DNA of 64,000 nt, from assembly GCA_002688265.1 (NCBI GenBank), contig NZCK01000007.1, forward strand, positions 104,739 to 168,738. Reading direction: 5' to 3'. This stretch comes from an archaeon (GTDB lineage: Archaea > Nanobdellota > Nanobdellia > Woesearchaeales > GW2011-AR9). The translations under genes were made by a program, and so were the position numbers. The notes under the pieces were generated by a model, which did no database searches, was not told the origin of the DNA, and saw only the letters and a list, made by a program, of their open reading frames with translations. Below are positions 1,413-60,609 of this stretch, in pieces (positions within the stretch are counted from its first letter, which is position 1; every line of letters begins with the position of its first letter).

Positions 1413-1528
1413 TGGCCCCGCCGTGATTTGAACACGGGACCACCCGATTTCAGTCACTAACGTTCCGAACAGTTTTCGGTGCCGCCAATGTATCAGTCGG
1501 GCACTCTACCAGACTAAGCCACGGGGCC
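1413..1528 (-). tRNA. tRNA-Ile(GAU) with a ~42-nt intron at the canonical 37/38 position
   Basis: The reverse complement reads GGCCCCG-UG-GCUU..GAGU-G-CCCGA-CUGAUA[intron]A-UCGGG-UGGUC-CCGUG-UUCAAAU-CACGG-CGGGGCC-A. The cloverleaf is complete once 42 nt are removed. The intron contains a CCGAA/UUCGG hairpin. Confidence 0.75.
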
Positions 1529-1659: not shown

Positions 1660-3849
1660 CTAAGCCCCAAGTGCATTCTCACTTAATCCTTTACGCTGCA
1701 CAATCTTCTTTCGAACATCAGCCTGCAATTCCATTGGTAACTTCTCAAACCTCTGAGAGATCAAAGAAGAAGTTCCACGGCCACCAGTTGCACTCCTCAG
1801 ATCATTACTCCAACCAAATAATTCTCCAACAGGCAATAGTGCAGTTACAATATTGAGTTCACCTTCTTGCTGCATATCTTGAAGTTGACCACGACGAGAA
1901 GAAATTAACTTACTAACTTCACCAACGTAACTATCAGGTGCTTCAATTCTAGTCATCTGCAATGGTTCATACAGAACTGGCCCTGCACCCATAACAGCAC
2001 CACGGATACCATCACGAACAGCAGGATACATCTGAGAAGGACCACGGTGTATAGCGTCTTCATGCAACTTACAATCCATCAAAGTGATTTTCATGTTTAC
2101 ACATGGTTCCTTTGCAAGTGGACCTGCTTTCATTACATCCTGAAACATGTCTAAAACTAATTCCATGATTTCATTAATCTGAACAATTCCACGAGTTCCA
2201 TCGATAAACATGTTTCCTTCAAAAATCCCACGAACATTGCTCGCTTCTTTAGTATCCCAACCACATTCATCACGAAGAACTGCAACCATATCGTTGTCTT
2301 TCTTTTTGTATCTACCAGGATTGATTTTACTGTCTCGAATTGCAGCAGCAGCTTCTTCATCCAAAGGTTCAGCTACAAAATACAAACGGTTGTGCTTGTT
2401 AGGAGACTTTCCTTCTGCTTCAGCACTTTCTTTAGTTACAGCTTCCCGATATACTACAATAGGTGGACTTGTTTTTACCTCTACACCTTTCTCTGATTTA
2501 ATCCGGTTCTCAATAACTTCAAGATGGAGTTCTCCCATCCCATGCATTAAATGCTCTCCTGTCTCTTCATTAATTTCAATCTGAACTGTTGGATCTTCCT
2601 TCTGAACTTGTCTTAAAACTTCAATTAACTTTGGTAAATCACTTGGTTTTTTTGCTTCAATTGCTTTACTCACAACTGGATCGAAAACGTGAGTGATTTT
2701 CTCAAACGGTTCAGCAGGACCACCACTAGTAATTGTTTCTCCTGGGATTGCTGCTTTACAACCAGCAATTCCAATAATATTCCCACTAGGAACGTTGTCT
2801 ACAATTTCTCGCTTAGCCCCATTGTAAATGAATACTTGCTGAACACGAGAAGGCATTTTTGCTTGATTCAAATATACTTGTTCTCCTTTTCTCATTGTTC
2901 CTGAGAAAAGACGACCAGCAGCTATTTCACCTGCTTGTGGATCAACTACCACTTTGGTTACAACGAAAAACATTTTTCCATTTGGATCACATTTTAACAA
3001 AGATTTTCCATCAGTACTTTCTTCGTCTCCATGCCAAATTTTCGGAACACGATACTCTTGAGCCACATCCGGACTAGGATGATGACCAACTACCATATCT
3101 AAAACTACTTCATGGAGTGGAGCTTTTTTTGCGAGAGCCTTGTAAGCATGATCATCGTCGCTAGAATAAGCGTCAATTACTTCTTTAAAACTAATCCCAT
3201 GCTTTTGCATGTAAGGAATACTCAAAGCCCAGTTATGAAAAGCAGAACCAAAAGCTACTGTTCCATCTGCAACATTAACTGTCCACTTCTCTTTGTCAGC
3301 TCCAGGAGTTAATCCACGGATAATTTTGTTAACATTAGAAATCTGTTTTACAAACCGATCTTGCATTTGCTGCGGAGTTAACTGTAATTCCTTAATTAAA
3401 CGATCTACTTTGTTAATGAACAAAACAGGTTTTACTCTCTCCCTTAATGCTTGTCTTAAAACAGTTTCAGTTTGAGGCATAACTCCTTCTGAAGCACAAG
3501 TTAGAGTGATTGCCCCATCTACTGCTCGCATAGCTCGAGTTACATCTCCACCAAAGTCTACGTGACCAGGTGTATCAATTAAGTTAATTAGAAATTCTTT
3601 TTCATCTATTGTGTGAACCATAGATACTGATGCACTATCAATTGTGATTCCTCTTTCCTGCTCATCTTCATGAAAATCAAGTTGCCGAGCTTTTCCAGCT
3701 AGTTCATCACTCATCATTCCAGCACCACTTAATAGGTTGTCTGAGAAAGTTGTTTTACCATGATCAATATGAGCACAGATTGCAATATTACGAATGTTTT
3801 TTTGATCCTTCATGATCCGCATTACACGGTCCACCATTTTTTCTGCCAT
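1660..3849 (-). CDS. fusA: translation elongation factor 2 (aEF-2)
   Basis: 729 aa. GTPase motifs AHIDHGKTT and DTPGHVDF, with full-length EF-2/EF-G architecture. Confidence 0.95.
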   Translation of the reverse strand: MAEKMVDRVMRIMKDQKNIRNIAICAHIDHGKTTFSDNLLSGAGMMSDELAGKARQLDFHEDEQERGITIDSASVSMVHTIDEKEFLINLIDTPGHVDFGGDVTRAMRAVDGAITLTCASEGVMPQTETVLRQALRERVKPVLFINKVDRLIKELQLTPQQMQDRFVKQISNVNKIIRGLTPGADKEKWTVNVADGTVAFGSAFHNWALSIPYMQKHGISFKEVIDAYSSDDDHAYKALAKKAPLHEVVLDMVVGHHPSPDVAQEYRVPKIWHGDEESTDGKSLLKCDPNGKMFFVVTKVVVDPQAGEIAAGRLFSGTMRKGEQVYLNQAKMPSRVQQVFIYNGAKREIVDNVPSGNIIGIAGCKAAIPGETITSGGPAEPFEKITHVFDPVVSKAIEAKKPSDLPKLIEVLRQVQKEDPTVQIEINEETGEHLMHGMGELHLEVIENRIKSEKGVEVKTSPPIVVYREAVTKESAEAEGKSPNKHNRLYFVAEPLDEEAAAAIRDSKINPGRYKKKDNDMVAVLRDECGWDTKEASNVRGIFEGNMFIDGTRGIVQINEIMELVLDMFQDVMKAGPLAKEPCVNMKITLMDCKLHEDAIHRGPSQMYPAVRDGIRGAVMGAGPVLYEPLQMTRIEAPDSYVGEVSKLISSRRGQLQDMQQEGELNIVTALLPVGELFGWSNDLRSATGGRGTSSLISQRFEKLPMELQADVRKKIVQRKGLSENALGA

Positions 3850-4138: not shown

Positions 4139-4714
4139 TTACTCTACCATTCGATAAATTAATTCTTCGTCAACACGAGGGTATTGATATAATTCGCTTT
4201 CACTAAACCATAACTTAATCTCTCTTGCTGCAGTTTCAGGTGCATCACTAGCATGAATTAAATTTTGAATTGGTCTATTTGCTTTGTCAGCTAAAGCATA
4301 ACTATCAATACTAAAGTCACCACGAATAGTTCCAGGTGCTGAAAATAAAGGTGCAGTATCACCAGTAATTGCTCTAACTTTATTTATTGCACCATGTCCT
4401 TCAAAAACAATAGCAATGGTTGGAGACATACTCAAATAAGATTTAAGTTGATTACGAATCCTAACACCAATCTCTCGTTCAGTTTCATCACTTGTTTTAC
4501 CTAACTTCACATACCCTGCTTTGGCTTTTTTTCCAACACTCATATACCAATCTTCATCATCTGCATAATGTTGGTTTACTAAATCTTCACTTGCATGAAC
4601 TAATTTCATTCCCACGATTTTTAATGTGGCTTTTTCAAATCTAGTGATTATTTCTCCACAAATTGAACGCTGCACAGAATCTGGTTTTAATAGAACTAAG
4701 GTTCTTTCAATCAT
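4139..4714 (-). CDS. ndk: nucleoside diphosphate kinase (long form with an internal insertion)
   Basis: N-terminus ERTLVLLKPD, later IRGDF and NLIHASD (catalytic His). It is the last gene of the conserved archaeal rpl7ae-rps28e-rpl24e-ndk cluster. Confidence 0.85.
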   Translation of the reverse strand: MIERTLVLLKPDSVQRSICGEIITRFEKATLKIVGMKLVHASEDLVNQHYADDEDWYMSVGKKAKAGYVKLGKTSDETEREIGVRIRNQLKSYLSMSPTIAIVFEGHGAINKVRAITGDTAPLFSAPGTIRGDFSIDSYALADKANRPIQNLIHASDAPETAAREIKLWFSESELYQYPRVDEELIYRMVE

Positions 4715-4723
4715 TTTTATTTA

Positions 4724-4839
4724 CCTCCAAATGGTTACGCGTAATCTCGAGCAAGCTCTCCTGACTTTGTTCCTCACGTCACAAAGCATTTGATACGCAA
4801 CGTGAGGCATGTGCTCCTTTTAGTCGCGTAGCCCCACAC
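4724..4839 (-). repeat. L1: G+C-rich structured leader repeat abutting the ndk start (copy 1 of 2)
   Basis: About 98% identical to 5802..5916 (2 substitutions and 2 small indels). On the minus strand it ends in GGAGG just upstream of the ndk ATG. Predicted helices are GGCUACGCG/CGCGUAACC, GAGCA/UGCUC and CCUCACGU/ACGUGAGG. Confidence 0.8.
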
Positions 4840-4910
4840 CACCACATTGTTTATTGTTTGTTTTTATAGTTGATTTAAAAAAAAAAATAATATTAATTTT
4901 AAAAAAAAAA

Positions 4911-5123
4911 TTATTTTTTTGTCTTTGACTTACTCTTACTGCGTTTAGCTTTCTCGTCTTGATAAAACTTAGTCCACTTAGTTGCAAGCGGTTTACGTTT
5001 TAGTTTGAGATAGTTTTTTTCACATTTAGAGTTCTTGAAATAGAGTACAGTACCGTCTTTCTTGACATACATTTTACCGGTACCCGGCTCCATTCTTTCT
5101 CCTGAAAAGCTACATGTTGGCAT
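4911..5123 (-). CDS. rpl24e: 50S ribosomal protein L24e
   Basis: MPTCSFSGERMEPGTGKMYVKKDGTVLYFKNSKCEKN is a typical L24e N-terminus. Position in the operon fits. Confidence 0.9.
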   Translation of the reverse strand: MPTCSFSGERMEPGTGKMYVKKDGTVLYFKNSKCEKNYLKLKRKPLATKWTKFYQDEKAKRSKSKSKTKK

Positions 5124-5151
5124 TGTTTTTCACCTGTTATAATAGTTTAGC

Positions 5152-5448
5152 TTAACGCTTCTTCCCTCGACGTCCGCCGCCAATTTTCTGCGCTTCAATT
5201 TCAGTATCTAACAACATTAAGATGTCTCCAACTCGAACTGGACCTTTTACATTCCTACGAATTGCTTTGTTCTTATCACGGCCATCTTGAATTAATGCCA
5301 TTACAGTTGTGAGTCCCCCACGGCTACCAGCACGCCCAAGGATTTCTTTAACTTCAGCAGGAGTAGCACTTGCAAAACTTGCATCGCTACTACTTCCAGA
5401 GTCTTTTCCTTTTTTAGTGCCTCTTGTGTTTCTTTCTTCTCTTGCCAT
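5152..5448 (-). CDS. rps28e: 30S ribosomal protein S28e (with an N-terminal extension)
   Basis: Core [44 protein letters not shown] matches S28e. It lies between L7Ae and L24e. Confidence 0.85.
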
Positions 5449-5462
5449 TTTGGTTTCTTCAC

Positions 5463-5792
5463 CTACTCTGCTTTAGATGCTTCGTTAATTTCTTTAATGA
5501 GTGCTTTTGCATCTCCTTCTTTGGTTACTGCAACTGCTGCACAACCAACTGATAAACCTACTGCTGCGCCCAGAGAATCTTTTTGAGGGATCTCTACACA
5601 AACAATTCCTTTTTCTTTAGCTAAAAGAGGTAAGTGCATTACAATTTCTTTTGGTGATACATCACCTGCGAATGCAACTAGTTTTGCAGTTCCACGTTCT
5701 AACGCTTTAGTTGCTTCATTACTTCCTTTACAAATTTTTCCGGTGCTTCGAGCAATTTCAATTGCTTCTAAGACTTTTGCTTCATCAGCCAT
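5463..5792 (-). CDS. rpl7ae: 50S ribosomal protein L7Ae (K-turn binding protein)
   Basis: Motifs [18 protein letters not shown] and [26 protein letters not shown]. Confidence 0.9.
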
Positions 5793-5801
5793 ATTACATT
5801 T

Positions 5802-5916
5802 CCTCCCAAATGGTTACGCGTAATCTCGAGCAAGCTCTCCTGACTTTGTTCCTCACGTCACAAAGCATTTGATACGCAATGTGCGGCATGTGCTCCTTTT
5901 AGTCGCGTAGCCACAC
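5802..5916 (-). repeat. L2: G+C-rich structured leader repeat abutting the rpl7ae start (copy 2 of 2)
   Basis: Near-identical to 4724..4839. On the minus strand it ends GGGAGGAAAUGUAAUAUG, where the final AUG is the L7Ae start codon. Confidence 0.8.
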
Positions 5917-6117
5917 TAAACCATTCATCATTGAAAATTGCACTTTTTTTTGCTTAGAAGTTGAAAACAGAATTTCAACCTCGTTGCAATGCAACTCATT
6001 GGTTCTTATTTGGCTTTTGCTGTGAGTTCTTTATAAATGTTTGGTAGGTTGTGAGCTGCGTTCCTAACTACAGTTCCAGAAGATTCTTAAACGATTTTTG
6101 TAGTGAAGTTGTTTGGT

Positions 6118-7947
6118 ATGTGTGGGATAACAGCATATGTAGGTGATGGGCAAGCTTACCCTTACCTTCTAAAAGGACTTGAACGGCTAGAATATCGAGG
6201 CTATGACTCAGCTGGCGTGGCTACTGTGAACAATGGCCAAGTGCAACTACACAAAACACCAGGCAAAGTCGAACAATTAAAATCAACAGTTTTGCCAGGA
6301 AAAATAGGAATTTCTCATACAAGATGGGCCACTCACGGGCCACCCACAAAAGATAATGCCCACCCCCATCTCTGTCAAACAAATTCTATCGCCCTTGTTC
6401 ATAATGGAATTATTGAAAACTATGCACAGCTGAGGGGACAATTACAAGAAAAAGGATACACTTTCAAAAGTGATACTGACACAGAAGTGTTAGTTCAACT
6501 AATGAATTATTATTACGGCAAAACCTACAACATGGAAATGGCCCTACGAAAAGCATTACATGATGTAGTGGGAGCCTATGGGATTGTAGCGTTTCACAAA
6601 GATGACCCAAGATTATATGCTGCACGCAAAGGAAGCCCCCTTGTAGTTGGAATTGGAGACAATGAAAATTTTGTAGCATCAGATCCTGCTGCATTTTTGG
6701 ATTCAACACGCAGAGTATTGTATTTAGAAGATGAAGACATAGCAGTTGTTTCTAAGAACGATTATGAAATCAAAAGTTTGTGTGTAGGTGAAGAAGAGTG
6801 CGTACACCGAACTGAAGAAAGTATTGATTGGGATTTGTCGTCTGTTGAAAAGAACGGCTTTGAACATTTCATGCTCAAAGAAATCATGGAACAACCTGAA
6901 AGTTTGAAACACTGTTTAGCTGGACGAATAGACTTAACAACGGGTGGGATCAAAGTTACAATTGATTTGCCAGAACATTTTGTCAAACGTTTGTCAAAAA
7001 TAAGCATCGTTGCTTGTGGAACCTCTTCTTATGCAGCTTACGTTGGAAAATATTTGATTGAGAAATATTCTAGGATTCCTGTTGAAGTTGATGTCGCATC
7101 AGAATGGCGTTACAAAAACCCAATCGTGGGGCCTGAAGATCTCGTGATTGTAATTAGCCAAAGTGGAGAAACTGCAGATACACTAGCTGCATTGCGTGAG
7201 GCAAAAAAACAGGGGGCACGAAGTCTTGGAGTGATAAATGTTGTAGGTTCTTCAATGGCACGCGAGGTTGACTCAGGTATTTACATTCACGCTGGACCAG
7301 AGATAGGAGTGGCATCAACTAAAGCATTCACAGGACAAGTTGTGGCTTTGAATTTTTTGGCGTTGCGCTTGGCTGAAATGCGTAAAGATCTGAGGCACGA
7401 AGAAGTTCTTTTGGCAATACAAGAGTTAGAAAAAACACCTGAGTTGGTTACTAGCTGTTTGAAAGAAGCACCTGAGATAAAAGAAGTTGCTTCGCAGATT
7501 AAAGACGCTAAATCTGTATTCTTTATTGGGAGAGGGGTTAATTTGGCAACAGCCATGGAAGGAGCTCTTAAGTTAAAAGAAATAAGTTATATTCATAGCG
7601 AATTTTTTCCTGCTGGTGAAATGAAACACGGACCAATTGCATTACTTGAACCAGGATTTCCCGTCGTTACATTTGTAAATAAAAATGATCCAATGTATGA
7701 GAAAAATTTAAGTTCGATTCAAGAAGCAAAGGCACGCGGGGCGTTTATTATTGCAGTGGCTGACCATGTGGATGCTGTACTGACTTCAAACGCTGATGCG
7801 ATACTGCATGTGCCAACTGTGCCAGATATTTTGCAACCAATAATTAATGTAATTCCTTTGCAATTACTTGCTTATTATGTAGCTTTGGCTCGCGGGTGTG
7901 AAATTGATCAACCTCGGAATTTGGCTAAGTCAGTTACGGTGGAGTGA
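6118..7947 (+). CDS. glmS: glutamine--fructose-6-phosphate aminotransferase (isomerizing)
   Basis: MCGI N-terminus with the catalytic Cys2, so I prefer the ATG at 6118 over the ORF-track start at 6103. Two SIS domains; C-terminal KSVTVE. Confidence 0.92.
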   Translation: MCGITAYVGDGQAYPYLLKGLERLEYRGYDSAGVATVNNGQVQLHKTPGKVEQLKSTVLPGKIGISHTRWATHGPPTKDNAHPHLCQTNSIALVHNGIIENYAQLRGQLQEKGYTFKSDTDTEVLVQLMNYYYGKTYNMEMALRKALHDVVGAYGIVAFHKDDPRLYAARKGSPLVVGIGDNENFVASDPAAFLDSTRRVLYLEDEDIAVVSKNDYEIKSLCVGEEECVHRTEESIDWDLSSVEKNGFEHFMLKEIMEQPESLKHCLAGRIDLTTGGIKVTIDLPEHFVKRLSKISIVACGTSSYAAYVGKYLIEKYSRIPVEVDVASEWRYKNPIVGPEDLVIVISQSGETADTLAALREAKKQGARSLGVINVVGSSMAREVDSGIYIHAGPEIGVASTKAFTGQVVALNFLALRLAEMRKDLRHEEVLLAIQELEKTPELVTSCLKEAPEIKEVASQIKDAKSVFFIGRGVNLATAMEGALKLKEISYIHSEFFPAGEMKHGPIALLEPGFPVVTFVNKNDPMYEKNLSSIQEAKARGAFIIAVADHVDAVLTSNADAILHVPTVPDILQPIINVIPLQLLAYYVALARGCEIDQPRNLAKSVTVE

Positions 7948-26754: not shown

Positions 26755-27789
26755 TTACTCTGTCTTCTTCAAAACCGTTACAGTTCCCTGATTTGTATTT
26801 ACTTCTACTAAATCACCACTCTTCAAAAGCTCTGTTGCAAACTTGGTTCCAACGATACAAGAAACATGCATCTCCCTTGATACAATCGCTGCATGACAAG
26901 TAATCCCTCCTTCATCAGTAACTATTGCAGATGCTTTTTCCATTGCTGGAACAAAATCAGGTGTAGTCATTGGACTAACAAGGATCTCCCCATCAAGTAA
27001 TTCATGGACTTGAGATTTTCTTCGGATGATTCTAACTCTTCCTTGGACGATTTTATTTTTTCCTTGTGAAGCTATTTGTCCTCTAAGAATTCCTTCTTTT
27101 TCTTCCTCATTTGGTTTTTCAATTATGAAATTATATTCTGGATTTCGCTTTGTAAACCCTTCTAAAGAGATTGTTTCTAAGAATTGTGTGGGAATGAAAA
27201 TTGACTCATTAAACCTCTGCTGAAGTGTTTCTCTTTCTGGCATCTCCTCCAAATCTTTTGTTTCAACTACTAGTTCGAAACCTTTAGCAGAAGGATGAAT
27301 ACTTGCAATTGATTGTTTGATTACTTTTTCGCAGACGTCGTATAGTTCATCATGTTCTCGCCAAGCTAAGGCCTTGTCACGAATTTCCTTTGGTGTGCGC
27401 TCATCACAAGCTGTGTAATAAAGAATTACGAATAATCTTGAAGCTTCTTTAAAATGTTTAATCATCTCTTTAAGTTCAATTAAGTTAAGTGTTCCTTTCT
27501 GCTCGAATGGATGAAGTTTTTTGTGAATTTCTTGATATTCATTTAGGCAGTTATTGAAAAATTCTGGCCCTTCTTTGTTTAGCTTCAGAAGAGAATTTTT
27601 AACCCATGCAAAAGCTGCGTCTTGTTCCCAAATTTCGTTGGCACCATCAACAATATGATAAATTAATGTTGGAGAATGGGGATTGATTAATCCAGTGGTC
27701 TTTTCTAAACCAGTATCGAATGCTGCACTCCAAACTTCTTGAACAATGAAGCCATTGTCTCTAGTCATAGTTTTTTGGTAAGTTTTCAT
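26755..27789 (-). CDS. PEP-utilizer mobile (swivelling phosphohistidine) domain protein with an unknown N-terminal domain
   Basis: The C-terminus [42 protein letters not shown] is the PEP-utilizer swivel domain. I recognise no ATP-grasp or PEP/pyruvate-binding domain. Paralogue of 59116..60609. Confidence 0.7.
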   Translation of the reverse strand: [344 protein letters not shown]

Positions 27790-59115: not shown

Positions 59116-60609
59116 ATGAAACGAGATAAAAAACTGTTTTTGAGAGAAAAAGATTTTCTATGTGCGGCTGTGAAATATCGACAACGATTTGATGCCTGCC
59201 CACACTTTATGTGGTTTCTAGGAAAAGCACATTGTTCTTTGATCTTTAAAACAAAATTTCCGTTTGGCCAACACGTTGCAGCTGCAAGATTCTCAAAAGA
59301 CAAAGCAGATTGGTACCACATTGAATCAGAATTAAAAAATTCTGCTGATGCTTTAATCCTGTCAGCAAAAAAGACTTCTGATATTGCAGAAGATATGGTT
59401 AAAAAATTTAAAAAATATGAGAAATCATTTTATTCATTGTGTCAAGAAATTGATGCAATCTCTATCTCTGATTTTAGTCTTGATGAACTGTCTTTATTGT
59501 ATAAGCGATTTGCAGAAGCATACACAAAAAAATTAATTAGTTCTGGACCAATTGATAGTTTCGCACTTTCAACCGATAGATTGATCGCTGATATGATTCA
59601 CAAGGAACTTGCTAATTCGAGAAGTAACCTTAGTTTTGCTGAAGTATTTGAAGCGCTTACTGCTCCAACATTCCTTTCATTCTTACAAGAAGAAGAATTA
59701 ATGTTTGTTAGAATGATGCAACAGATCAAAGATAATCCAGAACTTCGGGAAACATTGTTTAAACAACACCAAGAAAAATATTTTTGGATTCACAATAACT
59801 ATGTTTCAGATGCCATTCTTTCACTAGAGCATTTTGAAGATAAGTATGCGCTTTTTGCAGAAGTTGATTTACCAGCACGAGAACAAGAGTTACAAACTAT
59901 TTCCAAAAGAAATCTGAAAAACAAGGGAAAATTGATTGAAAAATTACAACTTTCTAAAAGACTACAACAATTACTACAAATAACTGATGTTTTTAGTTAT
60001 TGGCAAGATGAACGTAAAAAAGGAACTTTCTTTGCAACACACTACTTAAGTCTGATACTTGAAGCAATTGTGATACAAACCAAATACAACTTTAGACAAT
60101 TACTTTATACTATGCCAGATGAAATCTCACAAATTTTTGATGAATCACTTCCAACAGAAGAGTTAGATGTGCGTTATAAAGATTGCTTGTTAATCTGGAG
60201 AGACTCAACATGGGACATAATAACCAACAGTGTAGAAATCGAAAAAATAATCTTAGATGATACACAAATTGAAGAAGAGCATGAACTAAGAGGAATAGGG
60301 GTTTCGCTTGGAACTGCAACTGGAGTTGTACGAGTGCTCAAAAGTGTTCAAGAACTTTCCAAAGTTAAGAAAGGAGATATTATTGTTGCTGTAATGACCA
60401 GACCAGATTATGTTCCTGCAATGGAAAAAGCAGCCGCCTTCATAACAGATGAAGGAGGACTTACTTGTCATGCAGCAGTTGTTGCAAGAGAATTTGATGT
60501 GCCTTGTATTGTTGGATGCAGAACTGCAAGTAAAATTTTCAAAGATGGCGATATTGTTAAAGTTGATGCAAATCATGGGTGGGTTCGAAAAGTTGAATTC
60601 CTAGAATAA
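59116..60609 (+). CDS. PEP-utilizer mobile (phosphohistidine swivel) domain protein with a large unknown N-terminal region
   Basis: C-terminus VMTRPDYVPAMEKAAAFITDEGGLTCHAAVVAREFDVPCIVG. Paralogue of 26755..27789. Divergent from a TrmB gene. ATG at 59116 preferred. Confidence 0.7.
   Translation: MKRDKKLFLREKDFLCAAVKYRQRFDACPHFMWFLGKAHCSLIFKTKFPFGQHVAAARFSKDKADWYHIESELKNSADALILSAKKTSDIAEDMVKKFKKYEKSFYSLCQEIDAISISDFSLDELSLLYKRFAEAYTKKLISSGPIDSFALSTDRLIADMIHKELANSRSNLSFAEVFEALTAPTFLSFLQEEELMFVRMMQQIKDNPELRETLFKQHQEKYFWIHNNYVSDAILSLEHFEDKYALFAEVDLPAREQELQTISKRNLKNKGKLIEKLQLSKRLQQLLQITDVFSYWQDERKKGTFFATHYLSLILEAIVIQTKYNFRQLLYTMPDEISQIFDESLPTEELDVRYKDCLLIWRDSTWDIITNSVEIEKIILDDTQIEEEHELRGIGVSLGTATGVVRVLKSVQELSKVKKGDIIVAVMTRPDYVPAMEKAAAFITDEGGLTCHAAVVAREFDVPCIVGCRTASKIFKDGDIVKVDANHGWVRKVEFLE

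Follow-up and report, generated by a model that had tools for sequence, protein, structure and literature searches.

Archaeal ribosomal protein L7Ae autoregulates through a kink-turn (K-turn) in its own 5' untranslated region (UTR) (Daume et al. 2017, PMC5539422; Huang, Ashraf and Lilley 2019, PMC6298567). The published L7Ae K-turns adjoin the Shine-Dalgarno sequence, and according to the rules quoted in the latter report a Watson-Crick 3b:3n pair prevents folding of the K-turn in the absence of protein (PMC6298567). Another kind of leader control operates in bacteria, where upstream open reading frames (uORFs) and leader peptides control the gene downstream by translational coupling or by ribosome occlusion of its ribosome-binding site (PMC12548453, PMC13285730, PMC10219788). 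In this study, we analyze a sequence that occurs twice in a 64-kb stretch of an AT-rich, marine Woesearchaeota (DPANN) genome (64,000 nucleotides of contig NZCK01000007.1, assembly GCA_002688265.1; hereafter, the window). One copy lies in the leader of rpl7ae, the gene for L7Ae, and the other in the leader of ndk. We show that this sequence, which we call the module, is native to rpl7ae leaders and restricted to one small lineage of marine Woesearchaeota.

A repeat search of the window yielded a single long two-copy family, at 4719-4844 and 5798-5923, with 93% identity in ungapped alignment. MAFFT alignment and direct comparison delimited a 107-nt core, GGCTACGCG...CCATTTGG, on the minus strand at 4727-4833 and 5806-5912. 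The core copies are 98% identical and differ at exactly two substitutions, G/T and A/G. Indels are confined to the edges: GTGTGG-CT versus GTGTGGGGCT on the left, and GGGAGG versus GGAGG at the Shine-Dalgarno sequence. Outside the core identity falls sharply, with 7/11 matches in the left flank. A first-pass annotation of this DNA had described a near-identical duplicated leader set in unique surroundings, each copy ending in the Shine-Dalgarno sequence of the gene behind it, and this description was borne out at both genes. The limits of the core coincide with two predicted hairpins, as its 5' limit is the 5' strand of hairpin alpha and its 3' limit the 3' strand of hairpin beta. The features of both copies are the following:

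5806-5916, minus strand: rpl7ae-leader copy of the module in its long form, from GTGTGGCT to CATTTGG, including the near-identical core (5806-5912).
4727-4839, minus strand: ndk-leader copy of the module in its long form, including the core (4727-4833), which differs from the rpl7ae copy at two positions.
5820-5864, minus strand: 45-nt species-specific addition TTTGTGACGTGAGGAACAAAGTCAGGAGAGCTTGCTCGAGATTAC in the beta loop of the rpl7ae copy, recognized by comparison with the short forms found in relatives.
4741-4785, minus strand: the same 45-nt addition in the ndk copy.
5881-5916, minus strand: hairpin alpha of the rpl7ae copy, GUGUGGC (5916-5910) paired with GCCGCAC (5887-5881).
4802-4837, minus strand: hairpin alpha of the ndk copy, GUGGGGC (4837-4831) paired with GCCUCAC (4808-4802).
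5806-5872, minus strand: hairpin beta of the rpl7ae copy, UCAAAUG (5872-5866) paired with CAUUUGG (5812-5806), its 3' strand abutting the Shine-Dalgarno sequence.
4727-4793, minus strand: hairpin beta of the ndk copy, UCAAAUG (4793-4787) paired with CAUUUGG (4733-4727).
5794-5889, minus strand: predicted uORF of the rpl7ae copy, 31 codons, MPHIAYQMLCDVRNKVRRACSRLRVTIWEEM*, with its stop 1 nt before the rpl7ae AUG.
4721-4810, minus strand: predicted uORF of the ndk copy, 29 codons, MPHVAYQMLCDVRNKVRRACSRLRVTIWR*, with its stop 6 nt before the ndk AUG.

Neither nhmmer nor mismatch-tolerant pattern searches with both ends of the module detected a third copy in the window. The count stands at two copies in 64 kb plus 6 kb. 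Further copies were found neither in 58 kb from three close relatives (L090-L092) nor, beyond the leaders, in 407 kb of Woesearchaeota loci. The first-pass annotation had proposed a search of the whole genome for additional copies; no additional copy turned up in the 64 kb plus 6 kb covered. Exact 20-23-mers of the core and a K-turn pattern had no match in genome, metagenome (searched twice) or viral contig collections. A gapped family pattern gave one match in viral contigs, inside a GC-rich methyltransferase ORF, which was rejected because ~0.4 matches are expected by chance.

Two other loci, L005 and L006, carry both full leaders base-for-base as in the window. The ndk leader is also the same in L007 and L008, and L007 contains in addition the 3' end of the rpl7ae copy. 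These four loci are independent assemblies of the window species from different samples; hence, the repeat is not an assembly artefact.

To these were added rpl7ae leaders of other species, collected via an L7Ae search. Their content at the module site is as follows:

L093-L096, all of a single species: GTGGGGCTACGCGACTAAAAGGAGTACATGCCACACATTGCGTATCAAATGC-GCGTAACCATTTGGGAGG, the short form.
L097, of a species farther removed: GTGTGGCTAAGCGACAAATGGAATGCATGCCGCACCTGGCGTATCAAATCC-GCGTAACGATTTGGGAGG, also the short form.
L002: last part only, GGTAAATAACGCTAACCATTTGGGAGG, a remnant with hairpin beta alone.
L098: a diverged, longer leader.
L001, L003 and L099: no module, with other small hairpins at the site.

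The short form, ~68 nt long, thus occupies the same rpl7ae position in two other species, immediately 5' of the Shine-Dalgarno sequence, and represents the ancestral form of the module. The long form of the window equals the short form plus 45 nt placed between CAAATGC and GCGTAACC. When the addition was compared with the rest of the module as a possible direct or inverted duplication, only the 8-mer ACGTGAGG of the ndk copy matched (p 0.04), and no duplication of the module could be recognized in it.

The situation is different at ndk. Four relatives whose Ndk is 83-88% identical (L001, L002, L003 and L004) show the gene order of the window, and their rpl24e-ndk spacer measures 58-91 nt; that of the window measures 196 nt. 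In place of the window's ..AATG, the module and TGGAGG.., the ndk leaders of these relatives show ..AATGGAGG... The module was absent before ndk in all five relatives' loci inspected (L001, L002, L003, L004 and L093-L095), which amount to four species if L004 belongs to the L093 species; the ndk leaders of L093-L095 and L004 match, and they are probably one species. Because the relatives' ndk leaders lack the module, the ndk copy is specific to the window species. Altogether, the comparison shows that the window species gained 45 nt in the loop of the second hairpin and that the long form was then copied before ndk. The idea that the element belongs to the conserved rpl7ae-rps28e-rpl24e-ndk cluster as such does not survive: its ndk copy is found in the window species only, and several relatives are devoid of the rpl7ae copy too. 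The comparison of upstream regions suggested by the first-pass annotation revealed homologues in the rpl7ae leaders of other species and none at ndk.

A shortened, decayed copy of the module (72 nt) was also detected in L001, at 7645-7761, 3' of a tRNA gene that has an intron. On either side of this copy stands a direct repeat of 22 nt, GGCCACCACTTTTTTCTTTTTC, that comprises the 3' end of the tRNA and a T-rich terminator. No module is present at the orthologous tRNA site in the window or in L002.

The consensus structure was calculated with RNAalifold on an alignment of short forms. Two hairpins were obtained: alpha, in which GUGKGGC pairs with GCCNCAC, and beta, in which UCAAAUG pairs with CAUUUGG. 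Alpha is found in the minimum-free-energy fold of 5/5 sequences, and where the rpl7ae copy has a U.G pair, the ndk copy has G.U. In beta, a G-C pair is swapped to C-G in L097; in the ndk copy, the last two Gs of the 3' strand (G4728 and G4727) open the Shine-Dalgarno sequence GGAGG (4728-4724). Taking both hairpins together, 94.5% of the alignment cells are paired and two pairs are changed on both sides, while controls in which the pairing was slid along the alignment gave 26-55%. In the L001 copy, alpha and beta survive despite a broken uORF frame. The structural support for alpha and beta is real but thin.

Other helices had been put forward by the first-pass annotation: P3 (CCUCACGU/ACGUGAGG), P2 (GAGCA/UGCUC) and P1 (GGCUACGCG/CGCGUAACC). 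They are not the helices kept in relatives. The 3' strands of P2 and P3 come from the 45-nt addition, and these helices are therefore not ancestral, whereas P1 has two broken, uncompensated pairs in L097. The C-to-G change in the 3' strand of beta in L097 discriminates between the two models, since it keeps beta paired and breaks P1.

At both sites where the cores of the window copies differ, the bases of the ndk copy are never seen in the other four copies (rpl7ae copy, L093, L097 and L001), and hence the ndk copy carries the derived states. These changes raise P3 from 6/8 to 8/8 paired positions, an outcome reached by only 6/51039 random substitution pairs. One of them is synonymous in the uORF and leaves alpha paired, and the other replaces Ile by Val. 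Of all observations, this completion of P3 is the strongest hint that folding of the ndk-leader RNA has been under selection. Energy calculations suggest that the copies probably fold differently, alpha being dominant in the rpl7ae copy and near-isoenergetic with P1/P3 in the ndk copy.

Within the alpha loop, GCGACU-AAA-AGGAGC (minus strand, 5889-5904 and 4810-4825) is able to fold into a small hairpin with tandem G.A/A.G pairs, whose layout is not that of a K-turn; the L001 copy has a shifted version, GAGC-AAA-GCGA. Searches for known RNA families were unproductive. Rfam models at gathering score detected two tRNAs only in the whole window; at E values up to 10, region 4600-6100 gave three matches (E ~7-9) that were taken as chance, and nothing relevant. 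Several candidates were examined and discarded. A K-turn, K-loop, C/D box or H/ACA element inside the repeat was rejected because hand reading found no CUGA, no ACA after a lower stem and no bulge-plus-GA. A tRNA-like origin was considered, given the T-loop-like GUAUCAAAUGC and the ...ACCA at the 3' end; no match to the Rfam tRNA model was obtained at E values up to 10. A bulge-helix-bulge intron was dismissed as well, as the boundaries of the insertion do not permit a 4-bp helix between two bulges of 3 nt. A covariance model of the module, R1, recovered its training sequences plus weak matches only (L076, E 0.76); its matches in L002, L098 and L001 were driven by the common Shine-Dalgarno/start-codon flank.

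Each window copy also contains AAGGAG, three bases, an AUG and an open frame; in the rpl7ae copy, AAGGAG and this AUG lie in the alpha loop. Both predicted uORFs start and stop within the 5' leader and read across the main Shine-Dalgarno sequence. Alpha, beta and a short ORF beginning in the alpha loop are what copies of different species have in common. The encoded peptides would be MPHIAYQM..RVTIWEEM (rpl7ae copy) and MPHVAYQM..RVTIWR (ndk copy), and the consensus across three species is MPH[IVL]AYQ[MI]RVTIWE[ED]. Among the short forms, L093 has MPHIAYQMRVTIWEEIN (MPHIAYQMRVTIWEE..), which continues in frame into L7Ae, and L097 has MPHLAYQIRVTIWEDM*. The 45-nt addition corresponds to exactly 15 in-frame codons of the uORF, LCDVRNKVRRACSRL. 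The shared codons vary at five sites, and four of these fall on third positions (p ~0.045), two of the variable sites being the halves of one compensatory pair in beta. An ORF of such length with a Shine-Dalgarno-like motif appears in 1.9% of shuffled sequences. A search of all fetched loci with the peptide (tblastn) found nothing beyond the copies of the module. The uORF is a possible component of the mechanism. Another tiny reading frame, a minimal start-stop AUGUAA, lies between the Shine-Dalgarno sequence and the rpl7ae AUG in the window (5794-5799), L003, L097 and L099, including species that lack the module.

What might the module do? We lean, with a confidence little better than even, towards the view that it works in cis and affects how translation of the gene behind it is initiated. 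Cis regulation is a reasonable reading because the module is a leader element on the gene strand, ends at two Shine-Dalgarno sequences, and has homologues with some covariation in the rpl7ae leaders of other species. Pairing of CAUUUGG, which adjoins or overlaps the Shine-Dalgarno sequence, could modulate initiation. Ribosomes translating the short ORF would cross the Shine-Dalgarno sequence and terminate at the main AUG, with coupling or occlusion as potential outcomes. The copy before ndk would then give this gene an rpl7ae-like leader behavior, minus the K-turn, and L7Ae feedback, if it exists, would be limited to rpl7ae. Of the shared cis-regulatory leader envisaged by the first-pass annotation, the part that holds is a leader element with rpl7ae homologues elsewhere; its cluster-wide character and its control by L7Ae do not.

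A bolder version of this proposal is that the module is a portable translational cassette of DPANN archaea, made of two hairpins and a leader peptide, which moved to ndk and, once, to a tRNA flank. We consider this version doubtful. If true, it would be the first leader-peptide-type control in archaea, and also the first case there of regulatory 5' leaders shuffled between genes.

A number of observations weigh against a role in translation initiation. The GGAG of the uORF lies only 3 nt from its AUG, compared with 8-12 nt for genes in the window, and it is conserved neither in L097, which has GGAA, nor in the L001 copy. The stop codon of the uORF is lost in L093, where the frame is fused to L7Ae, and the frame is shifted in the L001 copy. 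A phmmer search among 1.84 billion representative proteins found no homologue of the peptide. Beta, which is A/U-rich, is present in the minimum-free-energy fold of the L001 copy only, and not in those of L093 or L097. The observed covariation was reached by 43/500 shuffles, and the alignment holds just four or five independent sequences; moreover, folding energies on the gene strand are no better than those of shuffled sequences (z -0.0 to -1.3). The module is dispensable, as the rpl7ae leaders of L001, L003 and L099 lack it and L002 retains a truncated form. Lastly, the L001 copy sits 3' of a tRNA gene, outside any leader.

The involvement of L7Ae deserves separate consideration, as the rpl7ae leader has a canonical K-turn and a candidate second one:

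5977-6004, minus strand: canonical K-turn hairpin Kt-A, AACC-AAU-GA-GUUGC-AUU-GCAAC-GA-GGUU, near the 5' end of the rpl7ae leader and outside the repeat.
5799-5937, minus strand: candidate K-turn Kt-B, drawn from UUUUC-AAU-GA (5937-5928), the helix GAAUGGUU/AACCAUUU (5926-5919 and 5815-5808) and GG-GA-GGAAA (5807-5799).

Kt-A lies just downstream of the TATA box (6037-6029) and ~60 nt upstream of the rpl7ae copy of the module. It is invariant in seven relatives (L001, L002, L003, L093, L097, L098 and L099) except for its loop, which is AUU, AGG, AAA or GAAGUAUGA. Its distance to the AUG is 184 nt in the window and 90-102 nt in L002 and L001. The -1b:-1n pair is C:G, the 3b:3n pair is a Watson-Crick G:C, and the bulge is AAU. 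Kt-A is the likely site of L7Ae autoregulation. When the 300 nt upstream of rpl7ae were scanned for the motif, Kt-A was the sole match, outside the repeat, and hand reading of both copies detected no K-turn within 4727-4839 or 5806-5916. The ndk leader, also read by hand, offers no upstream GA partner and hence no K-turn. The first-pass annotation, which found no canonical K-turn in the repeat, had missed Kt-A upstream, at 6004-5977.

Right after Kt-A, at 5960-5979 on the minus strand, there is a second conserved hairpin, GUUGAAA-UUCUGU-UUUCAAC, with compensatory changes in L001 (GUUAAGA/UCUUAAC). Since the GUU of the Kt-A C stem is common to both, the two structures may be mutually exclusive. 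Kt-B, in turn, is a hypothetical second K-turn: as drawn, the rpl7ae Shine-Dalgarno sequence is part of its C helix and G.A pairs, in the 3' half, and the module sits at the tip of its non-canonical stem. Its closing helix appears in the minimum-free-energy fold, and the arrangement can be drawn in the window, L002 and L093, which are three closely similar leaders, and not in L097. Two more distant Woesearchaeota, L020 and L065, have a single K-turn upstream of rpl7ae, (CG)UAACC-AAU-GA-loop-GA-GGUUA(CG). It encloses the Shine-Dalgarno sequence GGAGG, an arrangement known from other archaea. The window module ends 3' in GCGUAACCAUUUGGGAGG, which is similar to that K-turn minus its AAUGA part.

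The model advanced by the first-pass annotation, in which an L7Ae-responsive leader places rpl7ae and ndk under one autoregulatory control, can be judged on these data. Precedent exists: in other archaea, L7Ae autoregulation depends on a K-turn of the 5' UTR (PMC5539422, PMC6298567). The module does lie in the rpl7ae leader, the flanks of that copy can be drawn as a K-turn together with the Shine-Dalgarno sequence (Kt-B), and the alpha loop could form tandem G.A pairs (GCGACU/AGGAGC). However, the repeat contains no combination of C-helix, 3-nt bulge and tandem G.A; the 5' half of Kt-B, UUUUCAAUGA, is external to the duplicated unit; and none of the relatives examined has the element before ndk. 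Because Kt-A is outside the repeat and absent from the ndk leader, one L7Ae control over both genes is unlikely, and we regard the model as very improbable. A peptide acting in trans, with the helices being incidental, fares no better and strikes us as quite implausible. The proposed small protein would have 16-31 residues, MPHIAYQM..RVTIWEE. Four copies, representing three species, keep its ORF open, the 45-nt addition preserves the frame and introduces no stop, and the changes seen are either synonymous or conservative (Pro CCG/CCU/CCA, Ile/Val/Leu, Met/Ile, Thr ACC/ACG, Glu/Asp). Against it stand the lack of homologues among 1.84 billion representatives and in any fetched locus, a poor and unconserved ribosome-binding site, and a C-terminus that is different in every copy, with the ORF fused to L7Ae in L093. 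In addition, of the four coding substitutions that separate L097 from the window rpl7ae copy, two form the halves of one compensatory pair, and the module has been lost in several species.

The alternative that we take more seriously, while still considering it unlikely, is that the module is selfish or neutral DNA with no regulatory role: a small non-autonomous mobile or insertion-prone element that inserts into intergenic DNA or spreads by ectopic gene conversion, with the near-identity of the copies reflecting a recent copy or conversion event. Such an origin would fit a patchy presence that does not follow the rough rpl7ae tree, and the occupation of three kinds of site (rpl7ae leader, ndk leader and 3' flank of the L001 tRNA gene), each of which is empty at the orthologous position elsewhere. 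It would also fit the 98% identity of the copies, compared with ~80-90% for orthologous genes of sister species. So would the direct repeat of 22 nt around the L001 copy. An imperfect 9-nt terminal inverted repeat, GGCTACGCG/CGCGTAACC, points in the same direction; both the window and L093 show 8/9 matches, L097 has it in degraded form and the L001 copy lacks it. On the other hand, comparison of filled and empty sites gave no convincing target-site duplication at rpl7ae or ndk, no transposase or parent element was seen, and copies are very few (two in 64 kb and none in 58 kb plus 407 kb of relatives). Furthermore, four species keep the same position relative to the rpl7ae Shine-Dalgarno sequence, the uORF part is 88% conserved between the window and L097, above the expectation for a neutral spacer, and the derived changes of the ndk copy restore pairing. 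Long target-site duplications were considered and rejected: the similar A-rich strings on both sides of the window copies, AATAAACAATG / AATAAAAATG and AATGATGAATGG / AATGTAATATGG, are not adjacent to the boundaries and were regarded as low-complexity coincidence, the right-hand ones being ancestral spacers between Shine-Dalgarno sequence and AUG.

The genes and promoter signals around the module are listed below:

5463-5792, minus strand: rpl7ae, first gene of the cluster, with its AUG at 5792-5790.
5152-5448, minus strand: rps28e.
4911-5123, minus strand: rpl24e.
4139-4714, minus strand: ndk, with its AUG at 4714-4712.
1660-3849, minus strand: aEF-2.
From 6103, plus strand: glmS, divergent from rpl7ae.
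6029-6037, minus strand: TATA-like box TTTATAAAG of the rpl7ae promoter, conserved in relatives.
4860-4910, minus strand: T runs 3' of rpl24e and, nearer to the ndk copy and just 5' of it, the TATA-like strings TTTAAATC and CTATAAAAAC.

The DNA immediately upstream of the ndk copy is AT-rich, with T runs and TATA-like strings, whereas the rpl7ae copy is preceded by ~115 nt of additional conserved leader, with the conserved TATA box beyond. The earlier statement that AT-rich, promoter-like DNA precedes each copy thus holds for ndk and not for rpl7ae. By general archaeal signals, the T runs after rpl24e would serve as a terminator and the TATA-like strings as an ndk promoter. An identical Ndk protein is encoded on a Tara Oceans scaffold, and the closest relatives that bear a name belong to Woesearchaeota. 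The next-best genome matches of this 191-residue protein (window 4139-4714) have 39-51% identity and include many Patescibacteria (CPR) plus DPANN archaea, which suggests that a long Ndk type is common to both groups of ultrasmall organisms, CPR and DPANN.

Other features were noticed elsewhere in the window. A tRNA gene at 1413-1528, minus strand, has an intron of ~45 nt and is detected by Rfam (54 bits) and missed by ARAGORN; its orthologue in L002 is intronless. Short periodic direct repeats rich in TTC/TTCAxC (family D1, 951-1161) probably reflect a minus-strand coding stretch that is acidic and of low complexity. Two inverted repeats of 206 nt, 26786-26991 and 60373-60578, are 71% complementary and lie 33 kb apart; they may represent paralogous genes in opposite orientation.

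The cis-regulatory RNAs of DPANN archaea are almost uncharted, and comparative sequence analysis is the main route to them as these organisms cannot be grown alone. If the module controls translation, a ready-made 5' leader that is copied between genes and fixed would be a simple way to rewire expression, and an archaeal ribosomal-protein leader could join a K-turn with a second layer, structured or uORF-bearing. If it is neutral, the lesson is a different one: near-identical leaders in a conserved cluster need not mean shared regulation. Nature provides two variants of the module (short and long) in two contexts (rpl7ae and ndk), which permit direct comparison with reporters.

Several known systems resemble the module in part. 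The L7Ae 5'-UTR K-turn element shares its gene and leader region with the rpl7ae copy. Kt-A matches the published motif in form, and so does the UAACC-AAU-GA-loop-GA-GGUUA element of L020 and L065, with the Shine-Dalgarno sequence inside. In contrast, the repeated module contains no K-turn, its ndk copy has none, and Kt-A is 184 nt from the AUG instead of beside the Shine-Dalgarno sequence as in published cases, with a bulge that is AAU and not GAU. Archaeal miniature inverted-repeat transposable elements (MITEs) resemble it in their size (~70-115 nt), in having a short and imperfect terminal inverted repeat, in lying between genes and in a presence that varies among close species. The module differs from them in having two copies only in 64 kb, no target-site duplication in the window and no parent element; it is always oriented as the flanking gene, and it keeps one fixed leader position in several species.

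Bacterial leader-peptide regulators also have a short leader ORF that covers the main Shine-Dalgarno sequence and stops near the main start, with a peptide kept among close relatives. Here the host is a DPANN archaeon and the gene encodes a ribosomal protein; the ORF is predicted, its ribosome-binding site is weak and unconserved, and no known arrest motif was recognized in it. With structured ribosomal-protein leaders of Rfam, the module shares a conserved structured segment 5' of the Shine-Dalgarno sequence of an operon, and a helix that touches it. It matches no such family at gathering score, and nothing relevant at E values up to 10. Unlike them, the module is present in few species, is dispensable and has been copied to a non-ribosomal gene. 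The unusual aspect of this locus is that a ribosomal-protein leader of a known kind, structured or uORF-bearing, has been duplicated onto another gene.

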